The notes beneath the pieces are model-generated. The model was not told where the DNA came from. It did no database searches and saw nothing but the letters and a program-made list of their open reading frames with translations. Shown in pieces: positions 1,459 through 37,146 of a DNA stretch of 40,230 bases (position 1 is the stretch's first letter; each line of letters opens with the position of its first letter). The position numbers and the translations under genes were made by a program. The stretch comes from a virus. Its lineage: Duplodnaviria > Heunggongvirae > Uroviricota > Caudoviricetes. The stretch is from IMG/VR virus record IMGVR_UViG_2563366875_000002, positions 1-40,230 of that record. One strand, given 5' to 3'.

Positions 1459-2622
1459 TTACACATCATTAGTACCTTCCTTATTTTTTGACTGGGACAA
1501 ATTTGGGACCGATGGGTTCAGGATCGAGTCTATTTGCCGTGCGTGTTCGGTAAGGTGATTAGGTGCAAGGTGAGCATATCGACGAACCATTTCGATAGAC
1601 TCCCAGCCTCCCATTTCCTGTAACACTGACAACGGGACTCCGGCTTGAACCAGCCAACTTGCCCAGGTGTGTCTCAAGTCGTGAAATCTGAAATCATCAA
1701 TACCAGCCCGTCTCAGCGCCGCTTTCCAGGCTGTGTTTGCGTCATACCGCATCTTCCTTACTGTTGGCGCTTTCGTTCCGTCTGGTTTGGTACAGCTTTC
1801 CTTGTACACAAATACCCAACGGTGATGATTCCCGATTTGTTTTTTCAATACGCGACATGCAGTATCATTCAGCGCAACGCCAATTGCGCGGTTTGATTTA
1901 CTCTCTTCCGGGTTTATCCATGCCACCCGGCGCTGCATATCTATTTGTTGCCATTCAAGGTTGATGATGTTCGAGCGTCTTAAGCCTGTTGCCAGTGCAA
2001 ATTCAACAACAGACTTTAATGGCTCCGGACATTCATCAATCAGCCTTTGTGCTTCATGGGGCTCCAGCCAGCGGATCCGTTTATTCTTTGGTTGAGGCAC
2101 TTTAATAATTGGTGCCTTATCCAGCATTTTCCATTCACGCTCTGCGGCTCTTAGTAGGGCCTTTATAAATGAAAGATGCGTAGCCTTCGTTGCAACGGAC
2201 GCTGGTTTTGGCGTGTATTCTGGAACAGGTTTCCCTTTTTTTCTGCATGCTTCTGCCCTGAGTTTCCAGTTTTCCTCATGACGTCGGTTCGTCATTTTCT
2301 GCATTGCTGAATAAATTTTTGATTCAGTAATGTCTCTTAGTTGCATTCCTGCGAAATGTTGAAGCCAGAATCCGATCCGGCTTTTGTCATCGTCCAGTGA
2401 TTTTTTATGTGCTTTCTCTTCAAGCCACCTGACACACGCTTCCTCGAACGTTATATCAGGTATTTCACCAAGTTTGCTGACCCGCCATGCTTCAGCCTTT
2501 AGCTTGTCATGGAGTTCTGTCGCCTGCCTTTTGTCCTTTGTTCCAAGAGACTGTTTAAATCTTTTACCGTTCGGCAATGTGAAACTGGCGTACCATATTT
2601 CACCTCTGCGGAAGAGTGACAT
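1459..2622 (-). CDS. tyrosine-type site-specific integrase
   Basis: 387 aa; C-terminal catalytic region [40 protein letters not shown] (HxxR...Y); N-terminal arm-binding-like domain; adjacent to tRNA attachment site. Confidence 0.9.
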
Positions 2623-6431: not shown

Positions 6432-6995
6432 ATGAGGCTAACCGTGGGTAAGCATCACTGGAAAATAGAAAAACAGCCTGAGTGGTACGTGAAAGCTGTC
6501 AGAAAAACTATCGCGGCGTTGCCGGGTGGTTACGCTGAAGCGGCTGACTGGCTCGATGTAACAGAAAACGCTTTATTCAACCGCCTTCGTGCAGATGGCG
6601 ATCAGATTTTCCCGCTGGGATGGGCAATGGTTTTACAGCGTGCTGGTGGCACTCACTTCATTGCTGATGCTGTGGCGCAGTCTGCAAATGGCGTCTTTGT
6701 GTCTCTTCCTGACGTCGAGGATGTGGACAACGCCGATATCAACCAACGCCTGCTGGAAGTCATTGAACAGATCGGCAGTTATTCAAAACAGATTCGTTCA
6801 GCAATTGAAGACGGTGTAGTGGAACCGCATGAGAAGACAGCAATTAACGATGAGCTGTACCTCTCAATTTCGAAGCTGCAGGAGCATGCAGCACTGGTCT
6901 ACAAAATCTTTTGCGTTTCAGAAAGTAGTGACGCCCGCGAGTGTGCAGCTCCGGGCGCCGTGGCGTGTCGTGACTGTGGAGAAACTAACGCATGA
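6432..6995 (+). CDS. putative cII-position regulatory protein (hypothetical)
   Basis: 187 aa ORF directly after cro-like gene in the rightward early operon; assignment by position only. Confidence 0.5.
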
Positions 6996-7339: not shown

Positions 7340-8281
7340 ATGAGCACTAAATTAACCGGCTATGTATGGGATGGTTGCGCTGCGTCAGGCATGAAATTAT
7401 CCAGCGTGGCAATTATGGCCCGCCTGGCTGATTTCAGTAATGACGAAGGTGTGTGCTGGCCATCAATTGAAACCATTGCCCGTCAGATTGGCGCGGGGAT
7501 GAGTACCGTCAGAACGGCTATCGCACGGCTGGAAGCAGAAGGCTGGTTAACGCGTAAGGCGCGTCGCCAGGGTAACCGCAATGCGTCGAATGTTTATCAG
7601 CTTAACGTTGCGAAGCTTCAGGCAGCGGCATTTTCTCAACTGTCAGATTCTGACCCGTCAAAATCTGACGCATCAAAATCTGACCCGTCAAAATTTGATG
7701 CGTCGAAATCTGGCAAAAAAGCGGGTTTTCACCCGTCAGAATCTGGCGGGGATCCGTCAGTAAAATCAAAACATGATCCGTCAGATAAAAAAACTTCTCG
7801 TCCGGACGCTTCGCAACCGGACACGCAGACGGCTGAACAGGAGTTTTTAACTCGCCATCCTGATGCGGTTGTATTCAGCCCTAAAAAGCGCCAGTGGGGA
7901 ACGCAGGATGATTTGACCTGCGCACAGTGGCTCTGGAAAAAAATCATCGCCCTGTACGAGCAGGCCGCCGAATGTGACGGCGAGGTGGTTCGTCCCAAAG
8001 AACCGAACTGGACAGCCTGGGCAAACGAAATTCGCCTGATGTGTGTGCAGGATGGTCGTACTCACAAACAAATCTGCGAGATGTACAGCCGCGTCAGCCG
8101 CGATCCGTTCTGGTGCCGTAACGTGCTCAGCCCGTCGAAGCTGCGGGAAAAATGGGATGAGCTTTCCCTGCGCTTATCGCCGTCCGTCAGCACGTACACA
8201 GAAAAACGCGAAGACCCGTACTTCAAAGCCAGTTACGACAACGTGGACTACAGCCAGATCCCGGCAGGATTCAGGGGGTGA
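7340..8281 (+). CDS. phage replication initiation protein (O-like; N-terminal HTH, internal repeat linker)
   Basis: 313 aa; N-terminal HTH-like region (CWPSIETIARQIGAGMSTVRTAIARLEAEGWL); repeated DPSKSDASKSDPSK linker encoded by DNA iterons; position between cII-like gene and RusA/Q. Confidence 0.75.
   Translation: MSTKLTGYVWDGCAASGMKLSSVAIMARLADFSNDEGVCWPSIETIARQIGAGMSTVRTAIARLEAEGWLTRKARRQGNRNASNVYQLNVAKLQAAAFSQLSDSDPSKSDASKSDPSKFDASKSGKKAGFHPSESGGDPSVKSKHDPSDKKTSRPDASQPDTQTAEQEFLTRHPDAVVFSPKKRQWGTQDDLTCAQWLWKKIIALYEQAAECDGEVVRPKEPNWTAWANEIRLMCVQDGRTHKQICEMYSRVSRDPFWCRNVLSPSKLREKWDELSLRLSPSVSTYTEKREDPYFKASYDNVDYSQIPAGFRG
7641..7795. repeat. iteron-like direct repeats (putative origin of replication inside the replication gene) followed by an A-rich tract
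   Basis: at least 4 tandem copies of about 18 bp (CCGTCAAAATCTGAC variants) plus degenerate copies, then ATAAAAAAACTTC. Confidence 0.55.
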
Positions 8282-8283
8282 TC

Positions 8284-8772
8284 ATGAGTCTTTTGAATGA
8301 AGTTCAGAAATACATTGAAGCCCATCCGGGGTGTACTTCCGGAGACATTGCGGATGCTTTTGCAGGTTACTCACGGCAGCGCGTTCTGCAGTCAGCAAGC
8401 AAGTTACGTCAGAGTGGGCGTGTGGCTCACCGTTGTGAAGGGGATACACGCAGACATTTCCCGCGCCTGACTGAGAGAGCGCAGGAGGCGGAACCGCAAC
8501 CAGTTCGTGAAACCAGACCTGTGCGCAATTTCTATGTCAGCACTAACGACCCGCGGGAGATTTTGTGCCTGACCCGCCAGGCTGAAGAACTGGAGTCCAG
8601 GGGCTTATACCGTCGTGCTGCAACGGTGTGGATGGCGGCATTCCGTGAAAGCCACTCCCAGCCAGAACGAAACAATTTTCTGGCGCGTCGTGAGCAGTGT
8701 TTACGGAAAAGCAGCAAGCGCGCTGTATCGAGTGATGAGTGGTATCTGTCAGGGAATTACGTGGGGGCGTAA
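8284..8772 (+). CDS. putative PerC-family-like transcriptional regulator
   Basis: ATG 8284 after GGGGG; C-terminal region AEELESRGLYRRAATVWMAAF resembles the PerC/Pch signature as recalled from memory; family call tentative. Confidence 0.45.
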   Translation: MSLLNEVQKYIEAHPGCTSGDIADAFAGYSRQRVLQSASKLRQSGRVAHRCEGDTRRHFPRLTERAQEAEPQPVRETRPVRNFYVSTNDPREILCLTRQAEELESRGLYRRAATVWMAAFRESHSQPERNNFLARREQCLRKSSKRAVSSDEWYLSGNYVGA

Positions 8773-9098
8773 TGACGACGTTAACTCAATGCCAGCAGCA
8801 GGTGCTGGATATGCTGATTTCTTACCAGAAAGAACGTGGCTTCCCGCCAACCAATCAGGAGGTGGCAACCATGCTGGGATATCGTTCGGTGAATGCAGCG
8901 GTGGAGCATCTTCGCGCACTGGAGAAAAAAGGCGTCATCACGATAAAGCGTGGCGTGGCCCGGGGGATAACGCTTCATACCGCGGTGAAGGACGACGACA
9001 GCGAGGCGGTCGGGATTATCCGCTCACTGCTTGCCGGTGAGGAAAACGCCAGGCTGCGTGCAGCCCACTGGTTACATGAGAGGGGCCTGAAAGTATGA
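8772..9098 (+). CDS. LexA N-terminal DNA-binding-domain homologue (no peptidase domain)
   Basis: 108 aa; LTQCQQQVLDMLISYQKERGFPPTNQEVATMLGYRSVNAAVEHLRALEKKGVITIKRGVARGITL aligns by eye with the LexA winged-HTH domain; no S24 domain follows. Confidence 0.7.
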   Translation: MTTLTQCQQQVLDMLISYQKERGFPPTNQEVATMLGYRSVNAAVEHLRALEKKGVITIKRGVARGITLHTAVKDDDSEAVGIIRSLLAGEENARLRAAHWLHERGLKV

Positions 9099-9484
9099 AG
9101 TTGATCCTTCCTTTCCCGCCCAGCGTGAACACGTACTGGCGACACCCCAACAAAGGGGCATTTGCTGGTAAGAGCCTGATAAGCGCGGCGGGGCGAAAAT
9201 TTCAGAGCGCGGCGTGTGCAGCAATAGTTGAGCAGTTACGTCGTCTGCCAAAACCAACGTCGGCACCTGCTTCAGTGGAGATCGTGTTGTTTCCTCCGGA
9301 TAACCGGATCCGCGATCTGGACAACTATAACAAGGCGCTGTTTGACGCCCTGACCCACGCGGGTGTGTGGGAAGACGACAGTCAGGTGAAAAGAATGCTG
9401 GTGGAGTGGGGACCGGTTATCCCGGAAGGGAAGGTCGAGATCACTATCAGTAAGTACGAGAAAACGGCGGGTGCAGCCGCCTGA
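9095..9484 (+). CDS. rusA: Holliday junction resolvase RusA
   Basis: 129 aa; motifs LPFPPSVNTYWR and RDLDNYNKALFDALTHAGVWEDDSQV typical of RusA. Confidence 0.88.
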   Translation: MKLILPFPPSVNTYWRHPNKGAFAGKSLISAAGRKFQSAACAAIVEQLRRLPKPTSAPASVEIVLFPPDNRIRDLDNYNKALFDALTHAGVWEDDSQVKRMLVEWGPVIPEGKVEITISKYEKTAGAAA

Positions 9485-9503
9485 TTAAGAGGAGAAACGA
9501 AGT

Positions 9504-10301
9504 ATGAATAATCTGATGGTTATTGATGGTATTGAAGTTCGTCGTGATGCTTATGGGCGTTACAGCCTGAACGATCTGCACAGGGCTGCTGGTTCTCTGG
9601 ATAAGCATAAGCCTGCATTCTGGCTCCGCAATGAGCAAACTGAGCGTTTAATAAGCGAGTTGCAGATTTGCAACTCGGTCAATATAGAGCCAGTTAACGT
9701 TATTCGTGGCGGAAATAACCAGGGGACGTATGTCTGCAAAGAACTGGTGTATGCCTATGCAATGTGGATCAGCCCGTCATTCCATCTGAAGGTGATCCGT
9801 ACTTTCGACATGGTAACCAGCGCACCGGAAAAATTATCCGGACAGGCTGCTGACAAGATGCAGGCTGGTGTGATTCTGCTGGACTTTATGCGTCGGGAGT
9901 TAAACCTGTCTAACTCATCTGTGCTTGGTGCCTGTCAGAAACTCCAGGAGGCTGTTGGCTTACCGAATCTGGCACCGCGCTATGCCATTGATGCTCCTGC
10001 TGATGCACACGATGGCTCAAGTCGCCCGACACTGTCACTGAGTGCACTGCTGAAACAGTATGGTATACGCCTGACGGCTAATCAGGCATATCACCAGATG
10101 GTGAAGCTGGGGATCGTCGAGCAGCGCGAACGATACAGCCGTACCGCGATTAACAACATCAAAAAATTCTGGTCGCTGACAGCGAAAGGCTGTATGTTCG
10201 GCAAGAACATCACCAGTCCCGCAAATCCGCGCGAGACGCAGCCGCATTTCTTCGAATCCCGATTCCCTGAGCTGTTAAAGCTGCTCGATACCGTTCATTG
10301 A
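9504..10301 (+). CDS. KilA-N domain protein (antirepressor-like)
   Basis: 265 aa; N-terminal KilA-N-like DNA-binding region (IDGIEVRRDAYGRYSLNDLHRAAG...). Confidence 0.75.
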   Translation: MNNLMVIDGIEVRRDAYGRYSLNDLHRAAGSLDKHKPAFWLRNEQTERLISELQICNSVNIEPVNVIRGGNNQGTYVCKELVYAYAMWISPSFHLKVIRTFDMVTSAPEKLSGQAADKMQAGVILLDFMRRELNLSNSSVLGACQKLQEAVGLPNLAPRYAIDAPADAHDGSSRPTLSLSALLKQYGIRLTANQAYHQMVKLGIVEQRERYSRTAINNIKKFWSLTAKGCMFGKNITSPANPRETQPHFFESRFPELLKLLDTVH

Positions 10302-11312: not shown

Positions 11313-11681
11313 TTGATGCGTGATATTCAGATGGTTCTGGAGCGTTGGGGGGCATGGGCGGCGAGTGATAGTTCAGGCGTTGATTATTCACCTATAGCCG
11401 CTGGGTTTAAGGGACTTCTTCCCTATACAAGCAAGAAACGCTTGGCTTGTTCGGATAGTGATGCCTTAATTATTGAAGGTTGTCTTGCTCGTCTAAAGCA
11501 AAAAAGGCCGGACGAACATTCGCTTCTTGTTGCCCATTACCTATACGGTATCTCTAAAAGAAAGCTCGCCAAGGCTCGTAAAAAAGATGAGAAATTGATA
11601 CGTATAGAAATACAGCTAGCCGAAGGATTTATTGATGGCTGCCTTTCCATGCTAGATCTAACATTAGATTTGGACGTTTAA
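11313..11681 (+). CDS. late-gene antitermination protein Q
   Basis: 122 aa; MRDIQMVLERWGAWAA...IAAGFKGL...CLARLK matches Q-family N-terminus from memory; position immediately before the late region. Confidence 0.8.
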   Translation: MMRDIQMVLERWGAWAASDSSGVDYSPIAAGFKGLLPYTSKKRLACSDSDALIIEGCLARLKQKRPDEHSLLVAHYLYGISKRKLAKARKKDEKLIRIEIQLAEGFIDGCLSMLDLTLDLDV

Positions 11682-11709: not shown

Positions 11710-13041
11710 TTACTGGATGAATGACATTTGATTAATATATTTTATCAATAACTCTCTGGGTGTAGTACTCCAAAAATTTATGTGTTCATAATCAGTATAA
11801 ACATTTGTGAATTTTTTAAGTTCTTCATCACTTTTAGGGGCAAATCGCTCATTAAGAGTAATACTGTCTTTAATTATTCCGAAGAATACAATGGATATTT
11901 CAGGGATTTGCGATCTTCTCTCATAAGAATAAGGTATTTCTTTTATGTTAAGCAGGTCTGCTAAATAAGATATAGATTCAGCGGTAATTTCTTGTTTTAG
12001 TTTTTCCTTGTTACCAAAGCAATGTATGAAGGCAGCTACGACAAAGATCATATTTATTAAAGGATCACTGCTTTTGTTCTCATCGTCGTTTAACAGTTGA
12101 AAAATGTTAAGATTGCGTGAAAATGTTTGTGTTTCACGTAATGATAAGTTGGTTCGTTGAATTAAATCACGGATAAAGTAACCTGATAATCTATTGATTT
12201 TATTCAATAACCTTGTTTTTTCTACAAGGTAATCCCAATATATAACAGAGGCTTTACATACGTTGTGACCATTTATTAAACATGTATCTGGAAGCGTGAT
12301 GGTATATTTTATAAACTTGTCAAGATACTTTTGTGAGTTAATGCTATAACCATAAATATGATTTATAGATGCTTTTAATTGTTCTGTGTTTGTAACTAAA
12401 ATAAAAAAGACATTATTGATGTCAAAAATGTGTTTTATTGTTTCAATGACATTTGTTGAAAAACTCGGCTTACATCGGTCTAATTCATCAATTATAATTA
12501 CGATTTTTTGATTTTTTGATATGCTTTCGATGCAGGATTTAAGTGAATTTATGTTTTTCTCTGAGTCCATATGGTCTTCAAGCAAATTTTCAATAGTCCC
12601 ATCTATTGCTGCATTGCTTGCTTTCTTCATCGCATCTTGGAATTCTTCGGCAACTTCACTAGCCTCCTGTCGTAAAAACCAACCTGCACCAGCTTTTAGT
12701 ACCGTTTTTAAACCAAAGCGAATTGCAGGAAGAGATCTCTTAATGAAGTGTTGTTTTTCTTCCTCAGGCAAAATGCTGGCAATTGCAGAGGTTATGAGAA
12801 GTAATGGAGATTCTGCATGATCCCCTTTAAAGGCATCAATATAAACAACTTTAGATTCAGTTTCTTGCTCAATAATGAGATTTTTCAGTTTGATACTAAA
12901 TTCTGTTTTCCCTGTTCCCCATGCGCCGTCTATTACCAGTGGTGAAATGTCTGCCTCTGGTTTTAGCAACTTGATGATATTTTCAGCGATGTTTCTTCGT
13001 TGGAACTCGTCACGTTCAGTGAAAGATAGTGTATCTAACAT
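11710..13041 (-). CDS. KAP-family P-loop NTPase
   Basis: 443 aa; Walker A DGAWGTGKT (res 38-46), Walker B-like VIIIDELDRC; strongly AT-rich compared with flanking phage genes. Confidence 0.85.
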   Translation of the reverse strand: MLDTLSFTERDEFQRRNIAENIIKLLKPEADISPLVIDGAWGTGKTEFSIKLKNLIIEQETESKVVYIDAFKGDHAESPLLLITSAIASILPEEEKQHFIKRSLPAIRFGLKTVLKAGAGWFLRQEASEVAEEFQDAMKKASNAAIDGTIENLLEDHMDSEKNINSLKSCIESISKNQKIVIIIDELDRCKPSFSTNVIETIKHIFDINNVFFILVTNTEQLKASINHIYGYSINSQKYLDKFIKYTITLPDTCLINGHNVCKASVIYWDYLVEKTRLLNKINRLSGYFIRDLIQRTNLSLRETQTFSRNLNIFQLLNDDENKSSDPLINMIFVVAAFIHCFGNKEKLKQEITAESISYLADLLNIKEIPYSYERRSQIPEISIVFFGIIKDSITLNERFAPKSDEELKKFTNVYTDYEHINFWSTTPRELLIKYINQMSFIQ

Positions 13042-13655: not shown

Positions 13656-14708
13656 ATGAAAAATACTGTAAAAATAAACAGTGTTGATTTAATCAACGCT
13701 GATTGCCTGCATTTTATTCAGTCCCTGCCTGATGATTCCATTGACCTGATTGTTACCGATCCGCCTTACTTCAAGGTGAAACCCAACGGTTGGGACAATC
13801 AGTGGAAAGGGGACGAAGATTACCTTAAGTGGCTGGACCACTGTCTGGCCCAGTTCTGGCGGGTGTTGAAACCTGCCGGAAGCCTTTACCTGTTCTGTGG
13901 GCATCGCCTGGCATCTGATATTGAGATCATGATGCGTGAACGTTTCAACGTGCTTAACCATATCATCTGGGCGAAGCCGTCCGGACGTTGGAATGGGTGT
14001 AATAAAGAAAGTCTGCGCGCATATTTTCCTGCCACAGAGCGCGTTCTGTTTGCTGAACATTACCAGGGGCCATATCGCGGCAAAAGTGACGGCTATGCGG
14101 CAAAAGAAAGGGAACTCAAACAGCACATAATGGCACCGCTGATATCGTATTTCAGGGATGCTCGTGCCGAACTGGGTATAACGGCAAAACAAATTGCCGA
14201 AGCCACAGGTAAGAAAAATATGGTTTCCCACTGGTTTGGTGCCAGTCAGTGGCAGTTGCCGAATGAGGCTGACTATCGGAAGTTACAGGCACTGTTTTCC
14301 CGTATAGCGGCAGAGAAGTTTCAGGAACAACAACTGGAACAACCACACCACCAGCTGGTGGCATCTTATGATTCACTGAATCGCAAATATTCTGAATTGC
14401 TGGATGAGTTTAAATCTCTCCGGCGCTTTTTCTCCGTATCAGTCTCCGTGCCTTATACCGATGTCTGGACGCATAAGCCCGTTCAGTTCTACCCGGGTAA
14501 ACATCCGTGCGAGAAACCGGCGGATATGCTCCGGCAAATAATCAATGCCAGTAGTCGACCTGGTGATCTGGTTGCTGATTTCTTTATGGGATCCGGTTCC
14601 ACAATAAAAGCAGCAATGGCGCTGGGGCGTCGGGCGTTAGGTGTTGAACTTGAGTCAGAGCGGTTTAATCAGACGGTGAAAGAGGTAAGTGAACTGGTGG
14701 GGAAATAA
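13656..14708 (+). CDS. DNA N6-adenine methyltransferase (orphan, beta-class amino-MTase)
   Basis: 350 aa; motif IV DPPY (LIVTDPPYF) near N-terminus and motif I FFMGSGST near C-terminus; no adjacent restriction endonuclease. Confidence 0.88.
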   Translation: MKNTVKINSVDLINADCLHFIQSLPDDSIDLIVTDPPYFKVKPNGWDNQWKGDEDYLKWLDHCLAQFWRVLKPAGSLYLFCGHRLASDIEIMMRERFNVLNHIIWAKPSGRWNGCNKESLRAYFPATERVLFAEHYQGPYRGKSDGYAAKERELKQHIMAPLISYFRDARAELGITAKQIAEATGKKNMVSHWFGASQWQLPNEADYRKLQALFSRIAAEKFQEQQLEQPHHQLVASYDSLNRKYSELLDEFKSLRRFFSVSVSVPYTDVWTHKPVQFYPGKHPCEKPADMLRQIINASSRPGDLVADFFMGSGSTIKAAMALGRRALGVELESERFNQTVKEVSELVGK

Positions 14709-14715
14709 TTCTGGT

Positions 14716-14737
14716 GGCCACGTTGCGTGGCCTTTTT
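14716..14737 (+). terminator. rho-independent terminator after the methyltransferase
   Basis: 7 bp stem GGCCACG-TTG-CGTGGCC followed by TTTTTATTT. Confidence 0.55.
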
Positions 14738-14784
14738 ATTTCCAACACAGCACCCGCAAATATCGCGAGGTGAGAGATGACGAA

Positions 14785-15120
14785 ATGCCTCATAACCCAA
14801 ATACCTGGCCGGACTGGCTGGAGTTGTTTCAGAGCTGGTGGCGTGGAGACACACCGCTGGGTGCAGTGATTATGTCGATCGTTATGGCTGGTTTGCGCAT
14901 CGCCTATTTTGGCGGTGGTGGTGGCTGGAAGCGAAAAACGCTCGAGATTTTGCTATGTGGCGCTCTGACGCTGACCTTTGCATCCGCTCTTGAATATGTC
15001 GGATGGCCTAAATCGCTTTCTGTTGCCATTGGTGGTGGCGTGGGGCTGATCGGTGTCGATGCTATTCGTGGGGCTGCAATGCGAGTAATCGGTAACAAAT
15101 TTGGTAGCTCGAAGGAGTAA
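14785..15120 (+). CDS. holin (three predicted TM segments)
   Basis: internal ATG 14785 after GAGGTGAGAG and downstream of the terminator; three hydrophobic segments and charged C-terminus; immediately precedes endolysin. Confidence 0.72.
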   Translation: MPHNPNTWPDWLELFQSWWRGDTPLGAVIMSIVMAGLRIAYFGGGGGWKRKTLEILLCGALTLTFASALEYVGWPKSLSVAIGGGVGLIGVDAIRGAAMRVIGNKFGSSKE

Positions 15121-26200: not shown

Positions 26201-26556
26201 TGGCCCGTATCGGGGGAACCTGTTATTTCAAAATTGACGGTCAGCAGCTATCGCTGACCGGCGGCATTGAGGTGCCCATGAACAGGACGGTCAATGATGA
26301 CATCATCGGCCTGGACGGCTCAGTGGACCGCAAGGAAACTCACCGTGCGCCTTATGTCAAAGGGACCTTCAAGGTGCCGAAGAATTTTCCGGTGAACAAA
26401 ATCACCTCGTCTGATGAGATGACCATCACTGCCGAGCTGGCGAACGGTCAGGTCTATGTACTGTCGTCTGCCTGGCTGCACGGCGAAGCGAACCATAATG
26501 CCGAAGAAGGCACGGTTGATCTTGAGTTCCACGGTGAAGAAGGGGATTACCAGTAA
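26200..26556 (+). CDS. tail tube protein
   Basis: 118 aa; overlapping stop/start with sheath. Confidence 0.82.
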   Translation: MARIGGTCYFKIDGQQLSLTGGIEVPMNRTVNDDIIGLDGSVDRKETHRAPYVKGTFKVPKNFPVNKITSSDEMTITAELANGQVYVLSSAWLHGEANHNAEEGTVDLEFHGEEGDYQ

Positions 26557-26825
26557 TGAAAGAGCTTGAGTTAAAGAAACCGATTACCGCTCATGGCGAG
26601 ACACTCTCCGTACTGGAGTTTGATGAGCCCACCGGGAAAGATGTCCGCGAGCTGGGATATCCCTACCAGATGAATCAGGATGAGTCCGTCAGACTTCTGG
26701 CGCATGTGGTATCGAAATACATTGTGCGGCTGGCGAAAGTGCCGCAAAGCTCTGTCGACCAGATGTCTCCGGCAGACCTGAATGCAGCGGCGTGGCTTGT
26801 GGCTGGTTTTTTCCTCCAGGCCTGA
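26556..26825 (+). CDS. tail assembly chaperone (G-like); frameshift extension reaches 26974
   Basis: 89 aa ORF; slippery T_TTT_TTC at 26807-26813; -1 frame ORF continues to 26974, overlapping the tape measure start. Confidence 0.75.
   Translation: MKELELKKPITAHGETLSVLEFDEPTGKDVRELGYPYQMNQDESVRLLAHVVSKYIVRLAKVPQSSVDQMSPADLNAAAWLVAGFFLQA
26807..26813 (+). other. programmed -1 ribosomal frameshift slippery heptamer (T TTT TTC)
   Basis: X_XXY_YYZ heptamer in the zero frame of the chaperone, 4 codons before its stop. Confidence 0.7.
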
Positions 26826-26966
26826 CGGCTGAATACCTCACTGATCGCTTCTTTGACTGCGCCAGCTACTGGCGCATTAATCCTTTCGAATTGCTGAATA
26901 TGCCGATCAGTGAAATTCCCTTACTGGTCAGTCAGGCAAACAGGATAGAGCAGGAGAAACGCACAC

Positions 26967-28799
26967 ATGGCTGAATTTGAGCTTAAGGCGTTGATCACCG
27001 GTGTCGACAGGCTTTCTCCCGCGTTGTCGAAAATACAAAAGAAAATCCGGGGATTTAAACGCCAGGCGGAAGAAGCGTCACAGGGTGGGCTGGCGCTTGG
27101 TGGCGGACTGGCAGCGGGTCTGACGCTTTCCCTGAAATCTTATGCCGATCAGGAAAACGCCGCCACCGGGCTGAAAGTCGCCATGATGGATGCGAACGGC
27201 GAGGTTGGAAAGAGCTTTCAGGACATCAATAAACTGGCTATTGGCCTGGGTAACCAGCTACCTGGTACAACGGCTGATTTCCAGAACATGATGCAGATGC
27301 TGGTGCGTCAGGGGATCCCGGCAGAAAACATTCTGGGTGGTGTGGGTAAAGCGACAGCTTATCTTGCGGTACAACTGAAAAAAACACCGGAAGCGGCTGC
27401 TGAGTTTGCTGCAAAGATGCAGGATGCTACCGGAACGGCGTCAGAAGACATGATGGGGCTGTTCGACACTATCCAGAAGGCGTTTTATCTGGGCGTTGAC
27501 GATACCAACATGTTGTCCTTCTTCACTAAAACCAGTTCTGTTCTGAAGATGGTGAACAAGGATGGTCTTCAGGCTGCGCAGAGCCTTGCCCCCATCAGCG
27601 TCATGATGGATCAGATGGGGATGAACGGGGAGTCGGCAGGTAATGCCCTGCGAAAAGTTATCCAGTCCGGATTAAGCGTTAAGAAAATCAGGGACGTTAA
27701 TAAAGTTATGGCCCGCCAGAAACTCGGGGTACAGCTCGATTTTACTGACGGCAAAGGAAGTTTTGGCGGTCTTGATAACATGTTCAGGCAACTGGCAAAG
27801 CTGCGAAAACTGACCGACGTTAAGCGAACAGGTGTACTTAAGGCAATATTTGGTGATGATGCCGAAACCCTTCAGGTGGTCAATGCACTAATCGATAAAG
27901 GAAAGGATGGCTACGATCAGATCCAGCAGAAGATGAATAAACAGGCCAGCCTGAATAAACGTGTTCAGGCACAGCTTGGTACGCTGTCCAACCTGTGGGA
28001 GGCAATGACAGGGACCGCAACTAACGGCCTTGCGGCTATTGGCGGCGCATTTTCTGGTGACGCTAAAAATATCACACAATGGCTTGGGGAGTTGGGGGAG
28101 AAATTCACGAAGTTTGCGGATGAAAATCCCCGGGTTATTCGCGGCGTCGTCGGGCTTGCTGCCGGTCTTGCGATTCTGAAACTGGGATTGATGGGCGTGG
28201 GCAGTGCCATCAGTATTGTCAGCAGGATTATGTCGATGACGCCGATTGGCATGATTGCGACGGCGATTGCTCTGGCTGCGGGATTAATTATCACTAACTG
28301 GGATGTTGTCGGACCTTATTTCAAGAAGCTCTGGGAAACCATTGGTCCTTATTTTGAGGCAGGTTGGGAACTTCTGAAGAAGGTTTTTGCCTGGTCGCCG
28401 CTGGGGATGGTGATCAATAACTGGGGACCGGTTGTTAAGTGGTTTCAGGATATGTGGGACAAGCTGAAGCCAATTATTGAGTGGTTTACCGACAGTTCCG
28501 GTGACACGGTCGATGCCATTAACTCTGCGCAGTGGGGCGCGGGTGCTTATGATGCTTATGGGACGGGAATACCGGCGCGGGGATACACACCTTATCCGGC
28601 GGTGGATCCGGCTCAGTCAAACAACGCCTCCGATGCCATAGGCTCGAATCCCTTCATGATTAACAAAGCTTCTGTGCCAAAAGTTGATGGTGAGATCAAG
28701 GTATCTTTTGTGAATTCGCCTCCGGGTATGCGGGTTATGGAAACGCGATCCAGCGGTTTTGATGTCAGCCATGATGTTGGCTATACGCGGTTCAGGTAG
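26967..28799 (+). CDS. tail tape measure protein
   Basis: 610 aa; Gly/Ala-rich with hydrophobic central segments; position after chaperone. Confidence 0.88.
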   Translation: MAEFELKALITGVDRLSPALSKIQKKIRGFKRQAEEASQGGLALGGGLAAGLTLSLKSYADQENAATGLKVAMMDANGEVGKSFQDINKLAIGLGNQLPGTTADFQNMMQMLVRQGIPAENILGGVGKATAYLAVQLKKTPEAAAEFAAKMQDATGTASEDMMGLFDTIQKAFYLGVDDTNMLSFFTKTSSVLKMVNKDGLQAAQSLAPISVMMDQMGMNGESAGNALRKVIQSGLSVKKIRDVNKVMARQKLGVQLDFTDGKGSFGGLDNMFRQLAKLRKLTDVKRTGVLKAIFGDDAETLQVVNALIDKGKDGYDQIQQKMNKQASLNKRVQAQLGTLSNLWEAMTGTATNGLAAIGGAFSGDAKNITQWLGELGEKFTKFADENPRVIRGVVGLAAGLAILKLGLMGVGSAISIVSRIMSMTPIGMIATAIALAAGLIITNWDVVGPYFKKLWETIGPYFEAGWELLKKVFAWSPLGMVINNWGPVVKWFQDMWDKLKPIIEWFTDSSGDTVDAINSAQWGAGAYDAYGTGIPARGYTPYPAVDPAQSNNASDAIGSNPFMINKASVPKVDGEIKVSFVNSPPGMRVMETRSSGFDVSHDVGYTRFR

Positions 28800-28898
28800 T
28801 GTACAAAATGATTAATGTGTTTTTGTCTGGCATAATTTGGGTTTTCAGCTTTAAGTAGTTAATATAATCATTCCTTACAAATGATTGAAGGGATGATT

Positions 28899-29393
28899 AT
28901 GCGTATCTTTGTTTTTTTTATATCTGCACTTTTATCTTTTAACTTGGCTGCGGAAGAGTGTAAGTTCAGCTTTAATGAGTCAGAATTAATCTCTTCTATA
29001 GGTATTGCACCAGTTAAGCAAGAGATAATAAAGGATGAAGGAATAACTAAGCGGCAATATGAATTCAGAAGAGAATTATCTTCTGAAGAAATGCTTAGTG
29101 ATGACGCTGATGAAAAATATGAGCCGCAGTTTTATATATCTGTTTATAATCCATCATGCCCACAAAAGGTTATTGTTTGGTTTTTCAAAGACAATAAAAA
29201 CACAATGGATTTAAGTAATGAGGTCCTTGCTGGTAGAGCGTTCAAGTATTTAACTGGTGTTAATGAAAGTATTTTTGAAAATAAAATGAAAAAGTTTTTA
29301 AAGGTACAGTCATTTGAATCTTTTGATGAAAGGACAGATTCTAAATTTATAAAGAGTGGTGATATTTATTCCATTGATGTTCAACTCAGATAG
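28899..29393 (+). CDS. secreted hypothetical protein (moron) with Sec-type signal peptide
   Basis: AT-rich ORF; start taken at ATG 28899 after GAAGGGA (ORF track starts 28881); signal peptide MRIFVFFISALLSFNLAAEE; TATAAT at 28863-28868. Confidence 0.6.
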   Translation: MRIFVFFISALLSFNLAAEECKFSFNESELISSIGIAPVKQEIIKDEGITKRQYEFRRELSSEEMLSDDADEKYEPQFYISVYNPSCPQKVIVWFFKDNKNTMDLSNEVLAGRAFKYLTGVNESIFENKMKKFLKVQSFESFDERTDSKFIKSGDIYSIDVQLR

Positions 29394-29412
29394 TAATTAA
29401 AAATATTAGGTT

Positions 29413-29469
29413 CCCGCCACATCTTCTGCGATGTAAATAACTGACAAAGCAGATTTGGCGGGTTTTTTG
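29413..29469 (+). terminator. putative rho-independent terminator after the moron
   Basis: stem CCCGCCA/TGGCGGG enclosing a structured loop, followed by TTTTTTG. Confidence 0.45.
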
Positions 29470-29483
29470 TATCCGGAGTTTAT

Positions 29484-30812
29484 ATGACGTGGAAAGACAG
29501 GCTTCAGGATGCGTCATTTCGCGGCGTACCGTTTAAGGTTGAAGAAGAAAGTGCGGGAACCGGTCGCCGTGTGGAAACACACGAATATCCGAACCGCGAC
29601 AAGCCCTATACCGAAGATCTGGGAAAAGTCACTTTCCGCCCGTCCATCACAGCTTATGTGGTGGGAGATGACTGCTTTGACCAGCGCGATCGCCTGATTG
29701 AAGCGCTGAATAAACCCGGTCCCGGCACGCTTGTCCACCCGACATATGGTGAGCTGAAAGTCTGTGTTGACGGGGAAGTTCGGGTCAGCACATCGAAAAG
29801 TGAAGGGCGTATTGTCCGCTTTGACCTGAAGTTTGTCGAAGCAGGAGAACTCTCTTACCCCACATCAGGTGTGGCGACGGCGCAGACGCTGATGTCATCC
29901 TGTTCTGCACTGGATGACTGCATCAGTGACAGCTTCAGCGGTTTCAGTATCGATGGTGTGGCGGATTTCGTGCAGAACGACGTCGTCGGTAATGCCAGCA
30001 CAATGCTTGGGTATGTTTCTGATGCGATGAAAGTGGTGGATTCTGCCGTATCGGATGCCGCCAGGCTGTTGCAGGGGGATATCTCGGTACTTCTGCCGCC
30101 GCCATCGTCAGGCAAAAATTTCGTTGAGCAGGTGCAGAAAATGTGGCGTACCGGGAAACGCCTTTATGGTAACGCCAGCGACCTGGTCACCATGATCAAA
30201 ACGCTTTCCGGTGTCAGCCTCGGCAGCGATCTGCAACCGCGCGGCGTCTGGAAAACGGACAGTAAAACCACCGCCACGGCTACGCAGCAGCGTAACGTGG
30301 TTGCCAGCACCCTTCGTACGACCGCAATCAGCGAAGCGGCGTATGCCGTCACCCGATTGCCTGCGCCAACAACTTCCGCGGTGATGCAGAATGCCGCAGT
30401 GGGGCAGGCAACAACACCTGCGCAGAGCACTGGCTGGCCTTCCGTCACGCATCCGGCACTGAACAATGCACCGGCGGTGAAAAACACAGTTGACCTGCCG
30501 ACGTGGGAAGAACTGACTGACATTCGCGACACACTGAATACGGCAATTGATAAGGAGTTGTCCCGTACAACCAGTGATGCGCTGTTTCTGGCGCTGCGCC
30601 GGGTGAAAGCAGATCTGAATGCGGATATCAACACGCGCCTTGAACAGTCTGCACGGATCATTCAGCGCACACCGGATGAGGTTTTACCCGCGCTGGTGCT
30701 GGCGGCGACCTGGTTTGATAACGCGGCGCGTGACGCGGACATTATTCGGCGTAATGCCATTACGCATCCCGGCTTTGTGCCGGTGATCCCTCTGAAGGTG
30801 CCAGTGCAATGA
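29484..30812 (+). CDS. DNA circulation protein (Mu gpN-like)
   Basis: 442 aa; position immediately after tape measure in a Mu-like tail module. Confidence 0.8.
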   Translation: MTWKDRLQDASFRGVPFKVEEESAGTGRRVETHEYPNRDKPYTEDLGKVTFRPSITAYVVGDDCFDQRDRLIEALNKPGPGTLVHPTYGELKVCVDGEVRVSTSKSEGRIVRFDLKFVEAGELSYPTSGVATAQTLMSSCSALDDCISDSFSGFSIDGVADFVQNDVVGNASTMLGYVSDAMKVVDSAVSDAARLLQGDISVLLPPPSSGKNFVEQVQKMWRTGKRLYGNASDLVTMIKTLSGVSLGSDLQPRGVWKTDSKTTATATQQRNVVASTLRTTAISEAAYAVTRLPAPTTSAVMQNAAVGQATTPAQSTGWPSVTHPALNNAPAVKNTVDLPTWEELTDIRDTLNTAIDKELSRTTSDALFLALRRVKADLNADINTRLEQSARIIQRTPDEVLPALVLAATWFDNAARDADIIRRNAITHPGFVPVIPLKVPVQ

Positions 30813-34484: not shown

Positions 34485-35228
34485 ATGCATCGTATAGACA
34501 CGAAAACCGCGCAGAAGGATAAGTTCGGCGCGGGTAAGAACGGTTTTACCCGTGGTAACCCCCAGACCGGCACGCCTGCCACCGATCTGGATGATGACTA
34601 CTTTGACATGTTGCAGGAGGAGCTTTGCAGCGTTGTGGAGGCGTCCGGTGCCAGCCTGGAGAAGGGGCGGCACGACCAGCTACTTACCGCGCTTCGCGCG
34701 CTGCTGTTAAGCCGCAAGAATCCGTTTGGCGATATCAAATCGGATGGCACGGTGAAAACGGCTCTCGAAAACCTTGGTTTGGGAGAAGCGGCAAAACGGA
34801 ATGTGGGCAACGGGGAAAACCAAATCCCTGATATGTCTTTCTGGACGGTTACTGGTGGCAATGGAAATTTTGTGATTCGTCAACCTGACGGGCTAATCAC
34901 TCAGATGGTTACTGTAAGTATAAGCGGTCCAGTGGCGATGAATGGAATGACTGATAATGCTTATGCCATTACAGGTTCTAATAAGTCTTATATTGCCACA
35001 GCCACATTGCCCTTTGTATTTCCTAATAAGGTGCTGGGCGTTATCCCTCTGGTATCAACAACAGCCTATGGGGGTGTATCCAGTAATATTACAGGTTCAT
35101 ACGCGACGGCGGTTTGTTCTTTTGCCGCTGTCCGGGGGAATAATACGATTGTATTCAAAGTCGACAAACCACTGAATGCAGCCTTTCCTTCAGATACCAG
35201 CGTCTCAGCGTTAATCATTGGACGGTAA
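34485..35228 (+). CDS. tail fibre protein (constant N-terminal part plus currently expressed variable C-terminal part)
   Basis: 247 aa; N-terminus [21 protein letters not shown] typical of Mu S-type fibres; crossover repeat inside the gene at 34774-34788. Confidence 0.8.
34774..34788. repeat. left recombination site of the invertible segment (TTGGTTTGGGAGAAG; core AAAACC-TT-GGTTT)
   Basis: perfect 15 bp inverted repeat with 36727-36741; palindromic core resembles gix/hix crossover sites. Confidence 0.7.
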
Positions 35229-35230
35229 TA

Positions 35231-35674
35231 ATGAACTCAGTATTCTTTTCACCCGGAAGTAAAAGTTTTTATCTACAAGAATTGTTTCCAGAATATGAGG
35301 ATGCGGGAACGCTTCCAGATGATGTTATTGAAATTACCCGAGAAACATATGAGCAATTTCTTGGGCTGCATCCAGAAGGGAAAGAAATTGGCGCTGACAG
35401 TTCAGGACGGCCAATATGGATTAATTCCCCACCGCCTTCAAAAGAGGATGAGGTGTTGATGGCTGAAATGAAAAAAATATCTTTGGTTTCAGAAGCCAAT
35501 ACTTACATCAATACCCATCAGTGGCCTGGCAAAGCTGCTATTGGTCGGCTGAAAGGTAACGAGCTGGCGCAATATAATTTGTGGCTGGATTATCTGGACG
35601 CACTGGAACTGGTTGATCCCTCCAGTGCTCCAGATATTGAATGGCCTACGCCTCCGGCAGTTCAGGCCAGATGA
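35231..35674 (+). CDS. tail fibre assembly protein
   Basis: 147 aa immediately after fibre gene; C-terminal region shared with the convergent minus-strand copy. Confidence 0.8.
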   Translation: MNSVFFSPGSKSFYLQELFPEYEDAGTLPDDVIEITRETYEQFLGLHPEGKEIGADSSGRPIWINSPPPSKEDEVLMAEMKKISLVSEANTYINTHQWPGKAAIGRLKGNELAQYNLWLDYLDALELVDPSSAPDIEWPTPPAVQAR

Positions 35675-36248
35675 CATCCGGTGCGGTGCTGGTATCTGTT
35701 GCCGTCACCGCGTCAATGTAATCCAGCGCAGCGTTAAGTCGGGCGGTTTCTGCCTGCGTCAGGTTCCGTCCGGCCTGTAATTTCAGTTGAATCAGACTGA
35801 TAGAAGCCATTGCTGTATCAATCAGCGACTGGCGCTGTGCTTCTGCTGCATCTACTACGGCGCTATGCTGTGCCTCGGTATCCGTCACCCATTTCTCACC
35901 ATCCCATTTATCGTATGGCGTTAACGGGGCGATAGTGGTTGTATTATCAGGGTAATCACCCGGTGCTGTGATTTCTTTTGATTCTCCTGTTTCGGTGTTA
36001 TAGACGATTTCACCGCGATGGTCTGGTACATATTCCCATGAGTTAAAATCTGCAGAGCGGCAGATTGCATAACCAGCTTTGTAGGTGCCTGGAGCATCTA
36101 AACAGGAATATGCCGGAATGCCGACACCAACAGCAAGATATTCAGTTGAAGCTGAAATATACTCCCGACTCATGACGTCAAAGTTATAAACAGTAATTTC
36201 TCCTGCCATAGTGGCAATTAATTCACTGTTTAATTCTGCGTTATTCAT
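35646..36248 (-). CDS. alternative tail fibre assembly protein
   Basis: 200 aa convergent with the plus-strand copy; conserved C-terminus (DVIWPELPEA versus DIEWPTPPAV). Confidence 0.78.
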   Translation of the reverse strand: MNNAELNSELIATMAGEITVYNFDVMSREYISASTEYLAVGVGIPAYSCLDAPGTYKAGYAICRSADFNSWEYVPDHRGEIVYNTETGESKEITAPGDYPDNTTTIAPLTPYDKWDGEKWVTDTEAQHSAVVDAAEAQRQSLIDTAMASISLIQLKLQAGRNLTQAETARLNAALDYIDAVTATDTSTAPDVIWPELPEA

Positions 36249-36741
36249 TATGCAGCCCTCACAATATAGTTAAAAGCGACATTTCGTGGGCGTGTTTCAT
36301 TCGCACCTGCAGGTTTAGTCGTTGCCGCAACAACACCACCCTCTGTAATAGCCGGGTTAGGAATTGGGTAATTATCGAAGTCAATGGCCGGAGACAGGGG
36401 CGTGATTTGTTTTAAAATCGTGGTGCCTGTAAAACTTTCCAGAGTCTGGTCGTTAGTTCGTGAAGTCCAGATTCCCCAATAGTGGTTATGACTGACAATC
36501 GCACCGTCCTGAAGCGTTAATAATCCCCTTCCGTTATCCACTCCACGTCCGTCATCCCAGCCACGAATAAACTCACCGCGTAAATCAGGCAATTTATTTG
36601 TCGGGTAAGCCTTTGCCAGTTCCGGGTATTCTTCAGCAGAAAAAGCCGCACCATTGCACTTCAGCCAGCCTGTCGGCGGAGTGGCGGAAGGCCACGGAAC
36701 AGGCACACCAACAGGTAATGCAGAGCCTTCTCCCAAACCAA
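36248..36741 (-). CDS. alternative tail fibre variable C-terminal part (no own start; fused to the constant part after inversion)
   Basis: reading frame begins at the crossover repeat with VGLGEGSALPVG; tail-collar-like LPDLRGEFIRGWDDGRG motif. Confidence 0.7.
36727..36741. repeat. right recombination site of the invertible segment (inverted copy)
   Basis: CTTCTCCCAAACCAA is the exact reverse complement of 34774-34788; lies just upstream of the invertase gene. Confidence 0.7.
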
Positions 36742-36807
36742 CGTTTATGAAAATGTAGAAATAACGAGCAAATGGCATCATTCCTGCTTTTGTCAGGGAG
36801 ATCTACC

Positions 36808-37146
36808 ATGCTTATTGGCTATGTACGTGTGTCAACAAATGACCAGAACACAGATCTACAACGTAATGCGCTGAACTGTGCAGGATGCGAGCTGATTTTT
36901 GAAGACAAGATAAGCGGTACAAAGTCCGAAAGGCCTGGACTGAAAAAACTGCTCAGGACATTATCGGCAGGTGATACGCTGGTGGTCTGGAAACTGGACC
37001 GACTGGGGCGCAGTATGCGGCATCTTGTCGTGCTGGTGGACGAAGATTTAGAGCATGAGTTAATTAATGGCGGTTTGTCCCACTATTGTGGTTGGTATCC
37101 CCATAGAACAGGGCAAGATATAGTTGTTCATCATGTTCACTCATAA
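36808..37146 (+). pseudogene. serine DNA invertase (Gin/Pin/Hin family), 3'-truncated
   Basis: N-terminal about 95 residues match the Gin family from memory (MLIGYVRVSTNDQNTDLQRNAL...TLVVWKLDRLGRSM); similarity is lost after about nt 37100; ORF ends at 112 aa versus about 190 aa expected; C-terminal DNA-binding domain absent. Confidence 0.8.

Follow-up and report, generated by a model that had tools for sequence, protein, structure and literature searches.

On its gene order, the stretch of DNA analysed here (40,230 nucleotides, referred to as the window) is an SfV-type prophage, Mu-tailed and lambdoid-regulated. A proA-like gene and a tRNA-Thr(CGU) gene are followed by genes for an integrase, a CI-type repressor, RusA, the Q antiterminator (whose mechanism in SfV-like phages is described in PMC3851460), a holin and the head, and the 3' part of the window holds a Mu-type contractile tail module and then an invertible fibre segment. 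Between the tape measure and DNA circulation genes of the tail module lies a small gene, here called X, in a region that matches Escherichia phage SKA5 at 98.8% identity and the best-matching E. coli chromosomes at 99.5-99.8%. Over the insert itself, E. coli strains M8 and SK6988 show 100% identity to the window. An earlier note, made from the letters of the window, had pointed to a gene for a secreted protein at this place, and the observation is confirmed: X is a real gene, AT-rich relative to its flanks (Table 1).

Orthologues of the left-hand flanking gene in related loci match PF10145 (PhageMin_Tail), and the gene is annotated as tape measure in SKA5 and in E. coli; orthologues of the right-hand gene match PF07157 (DNA_circ_N). 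Everywhere else between the sheath (24704) and fibre (34485) genes, neighbouring tail genes overlap or lie at most 4 nt apart, so that the X site is the only break in the packing of the operon, and the earlier description of X as interrupting a tightly coupled tail operon is accurate. When the window is aligned to SfII, homology ends at 28789 and restarts at 29457, which defines a window-specific segment of 28790-29456; the interval of 28800-29470 previously given for the insert agrees with it.

The longest open reading frame for X, 28881-29393 (+), codes for 170 aa, and its start at 28881 is the one annotated in the database. Since the PHROG profile and all homologues begin at the ATG at 28899, NCBI calls the 164-aa form, and a GAAGGG lies 6 nt upstream of this ATG (ribosome-binding site at 28887-28892), 28899 is probably the true start and the 170-aa annotation six codons too long. 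X has a GC content of 0.31 (GC3 0.26), well below that of the tape measure (0.51) and circulation (0.56) genes, in line with the AT-rich composition that had been remarked on. By our estimate, an open frame of 170 codons would arise by chance at such a composition with a probability of about 1e-6. Relative to the KE51 allele of E. coli (96% identical), X shows 12.7 synonymous and 11.3 non-synonymous changes, a dN/dS of 0.20 which marks it, on the pattern of its substitutions, as a gene under purifying selection; this value and the existence of homologues in several genera argue that X is no chance ORF. A scan of the insert against Rfam matched no RNA family.

Table 1. Features of the window around gene X and the cargo genes found in the equivalent slot of related loci (positions are those of the locus named)
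Feature	Locus	Position	Strand	Remark
Late-gene antiterminator Q	window	11313..11681	+	PF06530, E = 1.8e-52
Tail tape measure gene (Mu gp42-like), left flank of slot	window	26967..28799	+	610-aa ORF
AT-rich spacer 5' of X	window	28800..28898	+	two candidate -10-like elements and ribosome-binding site
Cargo gene X (phrog_8976)	window	28899..29393	+	likely true start; 164-aa precursor, signal peptide residues 1-18
Intrinsic-terminator-like hairpin and TTTTTT	window	29414..29469	+	fold; CCCGCCA ... TGGCGGG
DNA circulation / baseplate hub gene (Mu gp43-like), right flank	window	29484..30812	+	442-aa ORF
Slot cargo	L004	1881-2369
Slot cargo	L019	2996-3448
Slot cargo	L045	892-1422
Slot cargo	L046	833-1279	-
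Slot cargo	L047	831-1508
Slot cargo	L023	3060-3437
Slot cargo	L028	2858-3295
Slot cargo	L022	2969-3406	-
Slot cargo	L027	2932-3440
Slot cargo	L031	2553-3032	-

The X precursor shows, by its sequence pattern, a canonical Sec/SPase I signal peptide, consisting of the n-region MR, the 12-residue h-region IFVFFISALLSF and the cleavage region NLAA/EE, in which the Ala at -1 is at least 90% conserved. We called it by a heuristic check of the n-region, the h-region and the -1 residue, and X has the positive n-region, the h-region of 10-15 residues, the small -1 residue and the lack of a further TM segment that this check looks for. The n-h-c pattern recurs in 14 homologues though the sequence differs, and so far as this heuristic reaches, the Sec signal peptide read into X by the earlier note is upheld. 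The lipobox [LVI][ASTVI][GAS]C is not present, the first Cys standing at +3 of the mature form, after AEE or AEQ. Cleavage after Ala18 would release a soluble, acidic 17-kDa periplasmic alpha/beta protein (predicted mature form 146 aa, 17.1 kDa, pI 4.9), probably with a Cys21-Cys87 disulfide; the family has two invariant cysteines and the strongly conserved motifs YEPQFY, KDNxNT and AGRAFKYLTG.

Structure prediction, one of the checks proposed for X, gave a confident alpha/beta fold. The AlphaFold2 model, built from a 13-sequence alignment, has a pLDDT of 88 and a pTM of 0.80, with low confidence only for residues 1-20, and places a seven-stranded antiparallel sheet against helices. Foldseek returned nothing for this model in the PDB at E <= 0.001, and in BFVD one metagenomic phage protein, whose automatic name we judged untrustworthy. 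A profile search of PDB sequences gave noise only (best E = 0.004 over 48 residues), scans of Pfam and NCBIfam found no family, and PADLOC-DB yielded no defence family at E <= 1. X matched neither the family profiles nor the folds of the periplasmic lysozyme inhibitors (Ivy, MliC/PliC, PliG), and we found no similarity to known exclusion proteins. Across Pfam, NCBIfam, PADLOC, the PDB and BFVD, then, no sequence or fold relative that bears a function was found.

X matches phrog_8976 over its full length (E = 3.2e-107, residues 7-170 against profile positions 1-164), which is annotated only as 'unknown function', so that membership is uninformative on mechanism. The family is small, with only 16 clusters among 5.8 billion proteins, and a profile (HMM) search of 1.84 billion representatives yielded no more than 12 proteins, which all belong to one narrow family. 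Every phage-borne member that could be placed is flanked by a PhageMin_Tail gene and a DNA_circ_N gene, in the same orientation. Identity to the window, in the order X, tape measure and circulation, is 0.61, 0.77 and 0.75 in L005; 0.59, 0.78 and 0.74 in L009; 0.57, 0.70 and 0.64 in L011; 0.36, 0.60 and 0.56 in L040; 0.33, 0.60 and 0.57 in L043; and 0.27, 0.58 and 0.43 in L037. The identity of X therefore drops in step with that of its flanks, but faster, and in every homologous locus examined its GC content (0.31-0.40) is below theirs (0.47-0.57). Homologues with as little as 27% identity are found in this slot too, having diverged together with the tail module, so the insertion of X is not recent, contrary to what the earlier reading implied. 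As judged from these alignments, X has travelled with the tail module for a long time and has been repeatedly lost or replaced.

A non-phage homologue of X (P0023) lies on the chromosome at 5001-5471 of L035, with E = 2e-16 to the family profile. It sits 60 nt 3' of the gene for a 1079-aa pertactin-type autotransporter, and it has neither the signal peptide nor the first conserved cysteine.

The presence and absence of X can be compared among close relatives. In SfV, SfII and SfI the flanks are 96% identical, about 45 nt separate the two genes and X is absent; it is also absent from SfIV, and from Mu, which has a 4-nt junction at the equivalent site. (The Mu gene 42/43 border was considered as an operon border with the late promoter Pp and rejected, the Mu record having the 4-nt junction and Pp lying inside gene 43.) The junction is present in 1094 of 5426 complete E. 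coli genomes, and 85 of the 1094 carry X, in every case on the chromosome and in the slot between the tape measure and circulation genes. The absence of X from all of these phages and from about 92% of the junction-bearing E. coli bears out its description as accessory cargo, and the comparison with related Mu-like tail modules, which the earlier note had itself named as a check, showed that X is no conserved structural component. The exact X protein is nevertheless common: at least 1000 contigs, from E. coli, Salmonella and Shigella, encode it. Among the complete E. coli genomes, two copies of X occur in only one.

The notion of a cargo site held as well, since related phages carry other cargo there, some of it on the opposite strand. 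In E. coli the slot is taken in 101 genomes by the phrog_5586 cargo, an unrelated secreted protein of 162 aa that was first met in phage vB_EcoM-720R4, and in 18 genomes by a bPH_1 PH-domain protein. (APEC strain E18005 combines a chromosomal X with the phrog_5586 cargo on a plasmid record of 205 kb.) Also found between the same flank alleles are genes for an N-terminally anchored protein of 176 aa, for a lipoprotein of 225 aa (lipobox LLGGC) and, on the opposite strand, for a membrane-anchored tRNA_anti-like OB-fold protein. In a wider survey, which took one genome per species and found the slot via the DNA circulation protein, Serratia carries yet another secreted protein there, Citrobacter a two-TM protein encoded on the minus strand, Symbiopectobacterium two small ORFs for cytoplasmic proteins and Arsenophonus a RepL-like wHTH protein. 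The survey also turned up empty sites, 37-60 nt wide, and a betaproteobacterium in which the two genes are 2 nt apart. In all, the slot in relatives holds at least 10 unrelated AT-rich cargos (GC 0.29-0.44), two families of which sit on the opposite strand, and simple criteria of hydrophobicity and lipobox mark 7 or 8 of about 11 cargo types as envelope-targeted, whether by signal peptide, N-terminal anchor or lipobox. Pfam matches among the other slot cargos were limited to the tRNA_anti-like OB, bPH_1 and RepL-like wHTH proteins, a PADLOC scan of them gave no convincing match, and profile comparison of X with the phrog_5586 (720R4) and Serratia L028 cargos found no homology (probability <2%). 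The junction of the tape measure and gp43 genes is a long-lived cargo slot of SfV-type prophages of Enterobacteriaceae; a search of the literature for the X gene or the slot found no description.

How X is transcribed bears on what it might do, and here the earlier proposal of an insulated promoter-gene-terminator unit is not supported: the terminator is borne by the site, the promoter does not score above chance and distant members of the family lack the spacer. The TATAAT element reported upstream does exist, at 28863-28868, but it is without a usable -35 and as a promoter it scores at chance: the best site by PWM in the upstream 150 nt is TTTTCA-15-TATAAT, with a score that 22% of composition-preserving shuffles reach. 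A consensus sigma-70 scan found no + strand promoter 5' of X, in the window or in four homologous loci. The spacer further holds the candidate extended -10 TGgCATAAT at 28828-28836, with aTGAtt 17 nt upstream (28808-28836 in all). Between the window and the KE51 allele the 99-nt spacer differs by 2 substitutions, with both hexamers intact, but the density of substitutions is patchy along the whole region, so this conservation is only suggestive of a promoter. AT-rich spacers of 72-134 nt lie 5' of X in the Escherichia-like subgroup. In the distant loci L037, L040 and L043, X starts 15-17 nt after the tape measure stop or overlaps it, with a strong ribosome-binding site.

In these three distant loci the best -10-like hexamer (TATAAT, TATAGT or TACAAT) lies 36-41 nt 5' of X, at about 4960 in L040, 5012 in L043 and 2137 in L037, where the tape measure gene encodes its conserved C-terminal Gly-Tyr-Asn/Ser-Arg. 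The hexamer scores above shuffles only in L040 (3%).

The hairpin and T-run described downstream of X are likewise present, but they belong to the site. In the window the hairpin has a 7-bp GC-rich stem (29414-29420 / 29457-29463), a branched loop that is unusually long at 36 nt, and six T's (z = -2.3), and in relatives a hairpin CCCGC-TTCG-GCGGG followed by T7 is found at all homologous X loci. A hairpin with a T-run also occurs at the empty sites of Symbiopectobacterium, MGYG-HGUT-00110 and SfII, whose record annotates it as a terminator, and at junctions that hold other cargo, which makes the terminator-like hairpin a feature of the site and not of X. The long-loop form of the window is identical in the diverged KE51 allele, and L005, L009, L011 and L014 (~6512-6545) have a UUCG tetraloop. 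With Q encoded in the prophage, late transcription should include X and pass the hairpin, regardless of the situation in the lysogen. In lytic growth X would thus be transcribed within the Q-antiterminated late operon, the hairpin being ignored. In a lysogen, any expression of X would depend on the weak candidate promoter in the 99-nt AT-rich spacer, and the site terminator would then shield the downstream baseplate genes.

X consists of extra DNA between genes that are adjacent in close relatives and has a deviating base composition, and by both of these marks of the Juhala/Hendrix definition it is of the moron type. Prophage morons are a main source of superinfection-exclusion and lysogenic-conversion functions; to our knowledge, few soluble periplasmic ones have been worked out. 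In HK97, gp15 is a moron of the late operon, adjoining the tape measure gene, that serves prophage defence by acting on the DNA-entry step in a manner dependent on the tail of the incoming phage (Juhala et al. 2000; Cumby et al. 2012; reviewed in PMC3594210), and in JBD26 the moron Tab, inside the late operon, is likewise a prophage defence (PMC10884400). Both are specified by the tape measure protein of the invader (PMC3594210; PMC10884400). X resembles gp15 in being a small, envelope-targeted, AT-shifted gene in a tail operon beside the tape measure gene and dispensable for the virion. The two differ in that gp15 is an inner-membrane, YebO-like protein encoded 5' of the tape measure gene of a siphovirus, with proven expression from the prophage, whereas X is predicted to be a soluble periplasmic alpha/beta protein encoded 3' of the tape measure gene in a Mu-type myovirus tail module; there is no sequence relation between them, and X is known here from sequence and a model. 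Tab, of 83 residues and paired with an anti-Tab, blocks tail assembly of the invading phage. If X is exported it cannot, unlike Tab, act on tail assembly in the cytoplasm.

Exported proteins encoded in or beside tail genes are familiar from lambda (lom and bor), phi80 and N15 (Cor) and T5 (Llp), phages that are temperate except for T5, and they modify the envelope so as to confer serum resistance, adhesion or a receptor block. These are outer-membrane proteins or lipoproteins, whereas X has no lipobox and no beta-barrel prediction, and our sequence, profile and structure searches detected no homology of X to lambda lom or bor, phi80/N15 Cor or T5 Llp. For the slot itself a parallel is offered by P2-like and P4-like elements, in which Rousset and colleagues (2022, cited in PMC10884400) reportedly described hot spots of defence genes and other cargo. 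As in those hot spots, a fixed intergenic slot in a conserved module holds unrelated cassettes in close relatives; unlike them, the X slot lies inside a tail operon and takes single, small and mostly envelope-targeted cargos, none of which matches known defence models.

It is highly likely that X is an exported accessory cargo residing in a cargo slot. As to its function, we lean towards a joint reading in which X is a moron-type exported cargo with an envelope role in phage competition, the more specific suggestion of an action in phage exclusion being tentative and made by analogy. From its context, X would act in the cell envelope, most likely in competition between phages, where it might interfere with the periplasmic stage of an incoming infection or mask an envelope component that incoming phages need. 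An envelope role in competition is favoured because most occupants of the slot are envelope-targeted and the best-studied late-operon morons are prophage defences. Set against exclusion are the unsupported promoter, the operon-like packing in L037, L040 and L043 and the lack of any PADLOC match. A second SfV-type junction is present in 12 of the best 30 X-carrying genomes (overall in at most 13%, from 1241 places in 1102 records, the genomes being non-independent), so X does not obviously bar co-resident phages with the same tail type. The interpretation in the earlier note, of lysogen-expressed cargo such as a periplasmic exclusion or host-interaction factor, is partly supported.

The alternative that survives best, though we consider it unlikely, is that X has a late, phage-serving function in the periplasm, being made only with the tail genes in lytic growth and then exported. 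Like T5 Llp, it might close off receptors or sites on the envelope and so keep progeny from being lost to debris or to the dying cell, or it might exclude competitors during the lytic cycle or tune lysis. X does lie inside the late operon on the same strand, with transcription through the hairpin guaranteed by Q and promoter scores that are not above chance, and the distant relatives in which X overlaps or closely follows the tape measure stop behind a good ribosome-binding site look like ordinary operon members. The long co-divergence of X with the tail module would also fit such a function. However, X is dispensable, most close relatives having no X or something else in its place, and the replacements include cytoplasmic proteins and opposite-strand genes, which cannot be members of the late operon. 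The persistent foreign composition and the AT-rich spacers of the Escherichia-like subgroup are, moreover, typical of independently expressed morons.

Less probable again is a lysogenic-conversion factor that helps the bacterium in an animal host by protecting or modifying the envelope from the periplasm, as lambda Bor and Lom or periplasmic inhibitor and immunity proteins do; lysozyme, bile, serum and competitor toxins are examples of what it might counter. A small predicted exported protein with a probable disulfide would suit this role, X is found widely in E. coli, Salmonella and Shigella sonnei isolated from the gut and from animals, and the one chromosomal homologue adjoins a pertactin-type autotransporter. 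A structural or assembly role for X in the tail, which its unvarying place beside the tape measure and baseplate hub genes and its constant orientation over deep divergence might suggest, is scarcely credible and already largely refuted, because Mu, SfV, SfII, SfI and SfIV have this tail module without X, unrelated genes replace X in other phages, and a Sec signal peptide would take the protein out of the cytoplasm, where tails assemble. We conclude firmly that X is no structural tail component, gene content across these relatives showing it to be dispensable for the tail.

The reading of X as exported cargo with a role in phage competition can be carried further. The slot might be a dedicated, terminator-marked cassette site for the exchange of small envelope-acting anti-phage proteins, with X representing a new family of soluble periplasmic exclusion proteins, of a fold absent from solved structures, that intercepts tail-tip or tape measure proteins of incoming phages. 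In this full form the proposal is rather unlikely, but if true, the 10 or more unrelated slot cargos would be a ready-made catalogue of exclusion proteins. Taken alone, X is a fairly ordinary moron-type accessory gene of an uncharacterised family, of interest for being common and for having a confident predicted fold without a close relative among solved structures. The slot is the more useful result, as a single recognisable site in a widespread tail module that offers many alternative envelope-targeted genes, and its cargos could be mined and screened together.

Several further features of the prophage were observed. Its first part (1-2622) comprises a proA-like aldehyde dehydrogenase ORF, tRNA-Thr(CGU) at 1369-1444 and a tyrosine integrase at 1459-2622 (-), the thrW-type attachment arrangement of SfV-like phages. 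A KAP-family P-loop NTPase of 443 aa (11710-13041, minus strand; PF07693, E = 9e-71) sits on the opposite strand between Q and the genes for a methylase (13656-14708) and the holin (14689-15120), and its site appears to be a second cargo or defence-like slot of the prophage, adjoining the N6/N4 DNA methylase. Upstream of the tape measure gene, a Phage_TAC_7-type chaperone ORF (26556-26825, 89 aa) is overlapped by a 60-aa ORF (26792-26974) that ends at the tape measure start, and the pair (26556-26974) has the layout expected for a frameshift-extended tail assembly chaperone. In the Atlantibacter prophage L011 the same tail operon has a second interruption, at 7980-9778, where two extra ORFs (506 and 93 aa), with no Pfam matches, lie between the circulation gene and the gp44-like hub gene. 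At the far end of the tail module (34485-37146), a fibre gene stands with a gene for fibre assembly; next come an inverted second assembly gene and, on the minus strand, a collar-domain fibre end, and then a 124-aa resolvase-type ORF, which may be truncated or mis-started. The arrangement looks like a Gin/Cin-type invertible host-range segment.
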